From Candidatus Babelota bacterium (lineage in GTDB: Bacteria; Babelota; Babeliae; Babelales; Vermiphilaceae): a stretch of DNA of 64,000 bases. The notes under the pieces are model-generated. The model was given only the letters and a program-made list of their open reading frames with translations, was not told the origin of the DNA and ran no database searches. A program made the translations under genes and the position numbers. This document shows positions 8,281-8,914 of the stretch, piece by piece. The number at the start of each line of letters is the position of its first letter. Within the stretch, counting starts at the first letter, position 1. The DNA is taken from NCBI GenBank assembly GCA_029262575.1, contig JAJCZC010000023.1, positions 13,959 to 77,958 on the forward strand. The letters run 5' to 3'.

Positions 8281-8914
8281 TCGCGTCCATTTAGTTTTTT
8301 ATATTTTATATCATGTGTGTCGTTAAGGAGGGTTTTGTCACCCTCCTTAACAATCCTGGACACCAACATGCTGTTGGATTGCTCTACCGCTAGCCCTTCG
8401 GCCATTATGCCTTTAGGCACCTATGTGCCTACGGCAAATGCCGCGGGATAGCTATCGGAAAAATTTTATAACGTTATATCATCCTACTTATCCGCCACAG
8501 TTGTTTACTCCTTCGAGGCTTTAGCGAAGTAGGATTAACGACGGCGAAAGCGCTCAACGGAGTTGAATGTATCGAAGGGACCATCGAACGCCAGACAGGC
8601 CTTATCTTTAATAATTAAATTGATGCATTTAGCGTATGCGCAAGGCACAAGATCGAGCCCCTTAGAAGCCAAGGGCGAGAGCGGTGGCCGGCAGGCTACA
8701 TTTGCCCTTGCAAGCCGTTGCTGAAAAATAATGCCTTCCATAAGATTTTGGTCGCCTAACAATGTGCAACAACACAAAAGCAAATGTAAGTCGTTTCATA
8801 CGCGACGAAGGGATTCCAAAGGCACAGCCTTGGTGCCTGGAGTGCAGAGGTGTCGGCAAGGACACCTTTGCAACACAATTGATATGAAATATAAAATAAC
8901 TAAATACACGCGCC
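8281..8914. mobile_element. GC-rich TIR-bounded non-coding element, copy 1 (candidate structured RNA / large MITE)
   Basis: ~45-nt imperfect terminal inverted repeats (TCGCGTCCATTTAGTTTTTTATATTTTATATCATGTGTGTCG ... reverse complement of GGCGCGTGTATTTAGTTATTTTATATTTCATATCAATTGTGTTG). 8631-8914 aligns closely with 38280-38564. Several stable hairpins. No credible coding frame. Confidence 0.6.

Follow-up and report, generated by a model that had tools for sequence, protein, structure and literature searches.

A candidate family of small, hairpin-ended, non-coding mobile elements in a narrow clade of Dependentiae

In a stretch of 64,000 nucleotides from Candidatus Babelota bacterium (GenBank assembly GCA_029262575.1, contig JAJCZC010000023.1, positions 13,959 to 77,958; from here on called the window) a segment rich in guanine plus cytosine (GC) and bounded by inverted repeats occurs twice, once next to the transketolase gene (copy 1, 8282-8916) and once upstream of a ComEC-like gene (copy 2, 38058-38566). 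A sequence-only reading of this DNA had left open whether the repeated element is a structured RNA or a new class of miniature inverted-repeat transposable element (MITE). Which of the two is it? Comparison with related loci leads us to favour, without great assurance, a family of small, non-coding, MITE-like mobile DNAs (about 0.5-0.7 kb) that is restricted to one lineage and would be mobilised in trans via a cis site composed of a hairpin and a repeat. The family is undescribed in every collection searched and is, on the sequences compared, best read as a new MITE-like family of a narrow Dependentiae clade.

BLASTN of positions 8281-8916 against the window returned only the query itself and copy 2, in identical orientation. 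Over 288 nt the right core (query 350-636 against 38279-38566) shows 92.4% identity (E 6e-119); over 193 nt the left part shows 77%. The copies measure 509-636 nt; their interior contains 48-51% GC, compared with 38.5% in the window and 26-29% in the terminal inverted repeats themselves, which are 42-48 nt long and 81-88% identical. BLASTN and these repeats thus bear out what had been seen by eye, namely two inverted-repeat-bounded copies in the same orientation with a near-identical, GC-rich right core. The limits proposed for the copies hold as located except on the right, where the similarity runs about 50 nt past the inverted repeat. An extra piece of about 175 nt in copy 1 is indeed present (8456-8630 when aligned with copy 2; about 8459-8603 against an orthologue, see below). 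It is not unusually structured: the folding z score is about 0, and the piece finds no support as a nested structured element. The direct-repeat families D6, D7 and D9 of the window are parts of the two element copies.

The element is non-coding. The frames of the two copies are broken relative to each other by a 1-nt indel and by stop codons, the substitutions sorted by position modulo 3 (5/5/9, 18/14/10 and 22/14/13) are without third-position excess, and seven open reading frames (ORFs) overlapping the element gave no Pfam match at E up to 1, all of which agrees with the earlier claim that no reading frame here behaves like a gene. A protein gene or a type I toxin would show an ORF preserved in every copy, with substitutions of a protein-like pattern; no such ORF was found. 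In the closest relative a gene caller had placed a 225-aa ORF (P0121) over the whole element. This call is spurious; the frame is not kept in either window copy, it forms a singleton cluster among about 15 billion proteins, and it was the sole match when the window's 84-aa ORF was compared exhaustively by HMMER with 1.84 billion representatives. The broken frames, the substitution pattern and the Pfam and HMMER results rule out a protein-coding gene, a captured gene fragment and a transposase remnant.

The transketolase homologues assign the host to the Candidatus Dependentiae (Babeliales), and the window was compared with about 130 kb of related loci, designated by L numbers (L001 and so on). 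The closest genome, GCA_041156605.1 (locus L001), has a transketolase 94% identical to that of the window and carries between its lipase-like gene and its transketolase gene an orthologous copy of the element (L001:11968-12454), in the same orientation and about 85% identical. In L011, L012 and L010, with transketolases 80%, 76% and 74% identical, this site is empty; the lipase-like and transketolase genes abut or overlap without a spacer. The site of copy 2 is empty in L009/L005 (noted as a 66% relative), where 108 nt separate a 70-aa ORF from the ComEC-like gene, and copy 2 is not present in L006 (88% relative), which has a 356-aa gene instead. Since orthologous sites are empty at both window loci, the element is, as judged from these alignments, inserted DNA at both, and the MITE-like half of the sequence-only reading holds.

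Two divergent members were found elsewhere. L008:1-345 (nhmmer E 2e-5) lies in reversed orientation upstream of the ComEC-like gene, and L010:11590-11681 lies downstream of a DJ-1 gene, where the hairpin CTTAGGAGGTT-cttgcc-AACCTCCTAAG, followed by AACCTGGGCC, clearly matches the left end of copy 2. The family therefore occupies different sites and orientations in different lineages. Both members are cut by contig ends, as expected of multi-copy repeats in short-read assemblies, and contigs end inside the element in two independent Logan assemblies. Together these finds make up a sample of three full copies (two in the 64-kb window and one in about 42 kb of the L001 relative) and two fragments.

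These sites also bear on the simplest non-mobile explanation, in which the element would be a non-coding RNA or a regulatory locus of the host that was duplicated segmentally, all other occurrences being orthologues or chance. That copy 2 has about 50 nt of the copy 1 flank, including the last codons of transketolase, and that neither a target-site duplication nor a transposase gene is nearby, would fit such a duplication. It is nevertheless improbable in view of the empty sites in several relatives at both loci, the third site downstream of the DJ-1 gene, the reversed member in L008 and the contig breaks inside the element; moreover, a one-off duplication leaves unexplained why symmetric modules of a hairpin and a repeat stand at both ends.

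Other small insertions occur at the same places. The intergenic DNA ahead of the ComEC-like gene is a turnover hotspot, being filled by the element in the window, by a gene in L006 (8787-9857, the 356-aa product having a signal-peptide-like start and no Pfam match) and by a reversed element in L008, and empty in L009. In this clade, small elements seem to have landed repeatedly on the 3' side of the transketolase gene. Downstream of the gene in L005 (84% relative) lies a different inverted-repeat element (L005:11974-12228) with 49-nt arms that are 92% identical (TTGTCGTCCTCGCGAACGCGGGGATCCACTAATTAAA...) and an AT-rich interior of 157 nt without similarity to the hairpin-ended family; the clade thus does host such elements. 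The transketolase of L001 is 5 aa longer due to an insertion of about 32 nt (L001:11851-11900) between GTTCTT and AAAGAACCATCT, before the ancestral stop codon; the inserted DNA resembles a terminator, forming a hairpin with a T run behind it. A GC-rich (49%) stretch between the cyclase and 6PGD-like genes of L015 (12971-13277) was considered as a family member and rejected, since it is a different repeat, composed of two tandem units of about 134 nt with internal hairpins (CCTGCTTCGCCAAGGCTATGCAGGGCAAGCAGG), that has only CTTCGCCAAGGCT in common with the L008 member. It probably represents another non-coding repeat family.

The strongest structural signal in the element was found at its ends, which were compared on the strand running 5' to 3' toward the terminus. 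All six ends of the window and L001 copies share a module consisting of a hairpin of 11-12 bp with a loop of 6 nt, an AT-rich repeat of about 36 nt (GACACA(CA/AT)TGATATGAAATATAAAATAACTAAA) and finally about 8 variable bases, usually containing CGCG. In L001 the left end is the right-end hairpin inverted, which results in an inverted repeat of 75 nt at 93%. In the window the left end of one copy resembles the right end of the other (87.5-88%) more than its own partner (81-84%), a cross-resemblance already remarked upon from the letters. The stem exists in five versions (the right ends plus the L001 left end; the copy 1 left end; the copy 2 left end; L008; L010), in which 58 of 58 cells are paired (56 Watson-Crick, 2 G-T) and two or more kinds of Watson-Crick pair occur at 11 of the 12 positions. 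When the 3' arms were re-dealt in all 120 ways, the true pairing alone reached 58. The loops are GGCAAG, GACAAA, GGCAAA, GGCGAA and GGCAAG (GRCRAR). Run over 178 kb, a covariance model of the end module recovered only the six known ends (81-93 bits) and the L010 hairpin. The end hairpin is thus a covarying one in which, to judge from its variation, pairing is required, the sequence of the stem is free and the loop is fixed. The left hairpins of the two window copies and their matched arm changes, from which the sequence-only reading had concluded that structure is conserved rather than sequence, are real; the conclusion stands for the subterminal hairpin, whereas in the interior it comes down to a few compensated pairs in three sequences.

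A hairpin under constraint with a free stem and a fixed loop suggests a folded nucleic acid that is recognised by an enzyme. The mechanism that we find best supported is one in which an enzyme encoded elsewhere would move or copy the element in trans. Each end would be a recognition module, made up of a paired stem of any sequence, a GRCRAR loop toward the end and the AT-rich repeat of about 36 nt. The two ends would serve as cis-acting sites of mobilisation that are probably recognised in folded form, as single-stranded or extruded DNA. The interior consists of nested short inverted repeats, rich in GC, whose modules can be exchanged, and copy 2 would have been made from the transketolase-side copy.

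The right boundary is peculiar. Beyond the inverted repeat the similarity between the copies resumes after about 20 diverged bases with a 30-nt motif (8935-8964 against 38589-38617) that scores 38, compared with 16.8 ± 2.5 and a maximum of 30 in 2000 shuffles. The motif of copy 2 keeps TGT, as does the transketolase gene of L001, where the transketolase gene of the window now has TAT; the transketolases of the outgroups end in ...KEIL, KEVV or KEFL and that of the window in ...VEVYS. As a native target site the motif was rejected, because it is present neither at the empty ComEC-like sites nor elsewhere in the loci. Two explanations are possible. About 50 nt of flank may have been carried along when copy 2 was copied from the transketolase locus, or the inverted repeat may not be the true right terminus, which would then lie past it, the insertion having supplied the last two or three codons of transketolase.

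Several findings weigh against a MITE-like family that is mobilised in trans. The shared unit extends about 50 nt past the right inverted repeat, so that copy 2 cannot be the result of a clean repeat-to-repeat cut and paste. Target-site duplications or other flanking direct repeats, the trace of transposition to which the sequence-only reading had pointed, did not rise above shuffled controls at the three full copies (2-3 bp are still possible, the ends having diverged). Neither an autonomous element nor a transposase was seen in the window or in the roughly 130 kb of related loci, and the window has no recombinase gene. Of the ends, the outermost 8 nt or so are the least conserved part, and interior blocks are conserved above them, with an 84-nt block (8631-8714) that is exactly the same in copy 2 and L001 and differs at 3 positions in copy 1 (0-3 differences across species), which is unusual for a passive MITE. 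Finally, only three full copies and two fragments are to hand.

What, then, is the interior? Its blocks are connected by long-range helices. GCGTATG in block b pairs with CATACGC at 8797-8803 to form a 7-bp helix that encloses block b, and GGCTACATTTGC, also in block b, pairs with GCAAATGTAAGTC at 8780-8792; the 12-bp helix GGCTACATTTGC...GCAAATGTAAGCC encloses a variable region. Both the 7-bp and the 12-bp helix are conserved in the three copies, and RNAalifold with the three full copies gave nested helices on either strand. Compensated changes were seen in the outer helix of block a (GCTT/AAGC in copy 2 and L001, GCTA/TAGC in copy 1), in block c (CCAAAGGC/GCCTTGG to CGAAAGGC/GCCTTCG in L001) and at 8725-8738 (AGGG/CCCT to AAGG/TTTT). 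With 3-4 compensated pairs in 3 sequences they are too few for statistics. The second small hairpin is replaced in copy 2 by unrelated sequence that still folds, as had been stated; the copy 1 version is the one shared with L001.

Between the window and L001 the third codon positions are 67% identical in the transketolase gene and 71% in the lipase-like gene, and next to the element the intergenic DNA essentially cannot be aligned. The homologous parts of the element are 85-100% identical, a similarity between species far above neutral: block b matches at 86 of 90 positions, the right hairpin region at 80-84 of 90 and block a at 69-71 of 77. The poorly matching stretches (about 40% identity), namely the left and the second hairpin and the stretch inside the 12-bp helix, are swapped modules rather than drifted sequence. 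An AT-rich, unstructured linker is also conserved (19 of 21 plus 29 of 30 positions). The excess similarity is therefore read at least partly as youth or homogenisation of an active multi-copy family and not only as selection for a fold; recent activity or homogenisation would contribute at least as much as selection at the level of the host.

The same numbers bear on the possibility that the element is a decaying, inert relic, whose apparent conservation would come from the small number of sequences and from gene conversion between the window copies. The poorly conserved terminal bases, the missing partner element and the modules lost or replaced in single copies would agree with decay. Conversion within one genome, however, does not explain 85-100% similarity between the window and L001 next to unalignable flanks and third codon positions at 67-71%, nor would a relic be expected to keep its end hairpin perfectly paired through a complete turnover of the stem. 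We consider a relic highly improbable.

More serious is the view that the mobile element carries a functional structured RNA of 0.45-0.6 kb in its interior, serving its own propagation or the host. It would be transcribed from promoter-like sites in the inverted repeats, the pairing of the ends would form a closing helix, and GNRA-type hairpins and nested long-range helices would constitute the fold. A functional RNA from the element is possible on sequence grounds: the interior is GC-rich in an AT-rich genome; its blocks are 93-100% identical across species, compared with 67-71% at third codon positions; compensated changes occur beyond the end hairpins (in blocks a and c and at 8725-8738); the 7-bp and 12-bp helices are present in all three copies; and 3 of the 4 distinct end-hairpin loops contain a GNRA tetraloop (GCAA, GCAA, GCGA). 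The substitutions between the cores of copies 1 and 2 comprise 15 transitions to 4 transversions, and the folding z scores of the interior reach -2.5 to -4.0 in some orientations (right core, plus strand, -3.0 and -2.5; L008 fragment, corresponding orientations, -2.6 and -4.0). The right inverted repeat contains promoter-like matches to the consensus only, one facing inward on the minus strand (TTGGCG-17-TATATT) and one facing outward on the plus strand (TTGCAA-18-TAAAAT, starting at 8868 in the subterminal hairpin).

The strand of such an RNA is where the evidence conflicts. The sequence-only reading had assigned it to the minus strand from G-U pairs in the stem at 8725-8738. The stem pairs as described, but we dropped the assignment because the G-U versus A-C asymmetry flips between the halves of the element, the fold of each strand using its own wobbles. 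The z scores of the interior are modest and, if anything, weaker on the minus strand (right core, -1.1 and -1.8). In block a and parts of block b, one-sided transitions leave G-U pairs on the minus strand, in block c and at the right hairpin on the plus strand; the favoured strand is thus whichever runs outward toward the closer end, as the inverted symmetry of the two arms predicts. Each helix is equally a DNA palindrome and hence folds on both strands. An intrinsic terminator was not found at the element, the -35 of the promoter-like match is not kept in L001, Rfam contains no relative, and the unstructured linker, about 94% identical between species, points to youth over selection; only three full sequences are at hand. 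We regard an RNA-carrying element as unlikely, though a serious competitor. Still more tentatively, the interior may be a large structured RNA (about 450-600 nt) of a new class, either carried by a mobile element or itself turned into one; the ends would pair as closing helix, and the GNRA-capped hairpins and long-range helices would form the fold needed for its own copying; RNA- or single-strand-templated copying would account for one precise and one overshooting boundary of copy 2.

Searches of the databases gave no known relative. With Rfam 15 (4227 models) the whole window had no match at the gathering threshold, and when the limit was relaxed to E 10 or 1 the element regions yielded only noise (the best match having E 0.57 and 19 bits versus a threshold of 39). 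ARAGORN found neither tRNA nor tmRNA. A group II intron (GTGYG-like start), hammerhead and other small ribozymes, a retron and a type I toxin-antitoxin system were dropped, being without defining feature or Rfam signal. Neither 72,556 plasmids nor phages showed similarity to the element in blastn. Exact scans with four core and end 20-22-mers had no match in genome and metagenome contig collections, and scans with four patterns, among them an end hairpin or repeat, had none in a viral contig collection; such exact scans (20-25-mers overall) would let divergent members like those of L008 and L010 escape. One of the scanned patterns occurs verbatim in L001, whose assembly is outside the scanned collections; the null result there therefore says little on the true distribution. 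A description of repeats or non-coding RNAs of Dependentiae was not found in the papers searched.

Of the known systems, bacterial MITEs such as the Correia elements of Neisseria, ERIC/IRU, Nezha and the 611-bp E622 of Pseudomonas syringae are among the closest. Like these, the Dependentiae element is small (under about 800 bp), non-coding and intergenic, has terminal inverted repeats with promoter-like hexamers, can fold end to end, occurs in several copies and is present at some orthologous sites and absent at others. Unlike these, it has at each end a covarying subterminal hairpin with conserved loop, overshoots on the right by about 50 nt, and shows no target-site duplication, which a MITE should have at each copy. 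We do not file it as an ordinary MITE, because this duplication and an autonomous partner are lacking, the extreme termini are variable, and a modular, GC-rich interior is conserved above them. We know of no matching autonomous insertion sequence.

Recognition apparently by a folded hairpin, covarying stems with a short conserved motif, hairpins in inverted pairs and the lack of target-site duplication are reminiscent of REP/BIME-RAYT and of palindromes derived from IS200/IS605. The hairpins of those systems are units of about 35 nt with a conserved 5' GTAG, or they lie on the same strand at both ends without long terminal inverted repeats. In the Dependentiae element, in contrast, the end hairpins are on opposite strands, each with the AT-rich inverted repeat of about 36 nt outside it; the flanks share no common tetra- or pentanucleotide, and no Y1 (HUH) transposase gene was seen in the window and the related loci. 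With large RNAs of Rfam (OLE, GOLLD, ROOL, HEARO/omega RNA, raiA) the element shares a length of several hundred nt, a relatively high GC content, many hairpins and long-range helices, and conserved blocks split by variable hairpins, and HEARO/omega RNA is tied to mobile elements. It differs in matching no model, having no adjacent IscB/TnpB-type gene, carrying inverted repeats of the DNA type and giving a conflicting strand signal. An analogy, of general architecture only, is the single-strand origin (sso) of rolling-circle plasmids, a structured non-coding DNA of a few hundred nt with conserved loops on variable stems that works as a folded single strand; the Dependentiae element has neither a plasmid context nor a Rep gene.

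The family is a marker of genome dynamics in the poorly studied, host-dependent Dependentiae, where it fills and empties intergenic sites, breaks short-read assemblies and has been mis-called as a 225-aa gene. If the interior is an RNA, a new large structured RNA tied to mobile DNA would have been found; if it is not, another MITE family has been added, whose interest lies mostly in annotation. The features of the two window copies are compiled in Table 1.

Table 1. Parts of the two element copies, with their positions in the window.
Feature	Position	Remarks
Copy 1 left terminal inverted repeat	8282-8321	AT-rich; conserved core reads GACACA..TGATATGAAATATAAAATAACTAAA in reverse complement; variable ~8 nt at the very end include CGCG
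Copy 1 left subterminal hairpin	8322-8351	12-bp stem; loop GACAAA read outward on the minus strand
Copy 1 second small hairpin	8363-8377	CCAACA-tgc-TGTTGG; identical in L001 orthologue; A7GGG-aggg-CCCT6 in copy 2 (38144-38165)
Copy 1 block a	8382-8458	Extended imperfect palindrome of ~64 nt; apical hairpin TAGGCAC-ctat-GTGCCTA
Copy 1-only segment	8459-8603	~145 nt; not in copy 2 or the orthologue; TCGAAGGGACCA and following stretch shared with L008 member
Copy 1 block b	8631-8724	Most conserved stretch
Copy 1 variable region inside 12-bp helix	8725-8779	~90% similar in copy 2; replaced in L001 (~40% identity)
Copy 1 block c	8780-8843	Conserved hairpins including CCAAAGGC-aca-GCCTTGG; compensated C-G to G-C in L001
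Copy 1 right subterminal hairpin	8844-8871	GCAGAGGTGTC-GGCAAG-GACACCTTTGC; identical at right ends of three copies, inverted at L001 left end
Copy 1 right terminal inverted repeat	8872-8916	Promoter-like consensus matches
Copy 1 right extension	8917-8964	Motif 8935-8964 overlaps stop and last codons of transketolase (8952-10820, minus strand)
Copy 2 left terminal inverted repeat	38058-38102	
Copy 2 left subterminal hairpin	38103-38132	Loop GGCAAA read outward
Copy 2 block a	38174-38252	
Copy 2 blocks b and c with enclosed variable region	38280-38493	
Copy 2 right subterminal hairpin	38494-38521	Loop GGCAAG
Copy 2 right terminal inverted repeat	38522-38566	
Copy 2 right extension	38567-38617	38589-38617 homologous to transketolase-proximal flank of copy 1

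The window contains further features outside the element. Between 13637 and 37631 the genes of purine biosynthesis form a nearly complete cluster that includes fusion proteins: SAICAR synthetase plus AIR carboxylase (13637-14899), a 950-aa FGAM synthase (21368-24220) with a glutaminase subunit (24163-24981), an 813-aa protein (33218-35659), whose L006 orthologue has adenylosuccinate-lyase and AIR-synthase domains, and PurF (35682-37631). Dependentiae are usually described as being without de novo nucleotide synthesis, so that the cluster deserves a look.

A 746-aa protein (44680-46920) with an RNase III domain and a double-stranded-RNA-binding motif is far longer than bacterial RNase III and is conserved in L006 (15729-17672). 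The stretch 51823-60040 is a block of paralogous genes without Pfam match, which gives rise to the repeat families D1-D5 (70-91%, spacings about 5.4-5.9 kb and 0.7 kb). A 97-nt repeat (62112-62208 and 63158-63254, 92% identity) lies with its first copy inside a D-Ala-D-Ala dipeptidase (Peptidase_M15) gene (61517-62236), and its second copy suggests a neighbouring paralogue. Finally, the repeat family D10 (28549-28611 and 28807-28869) represents the internal repeats of a gene (28192-29256) for a eukaryote-like WD40 beta-propeller protein of 354 aa.

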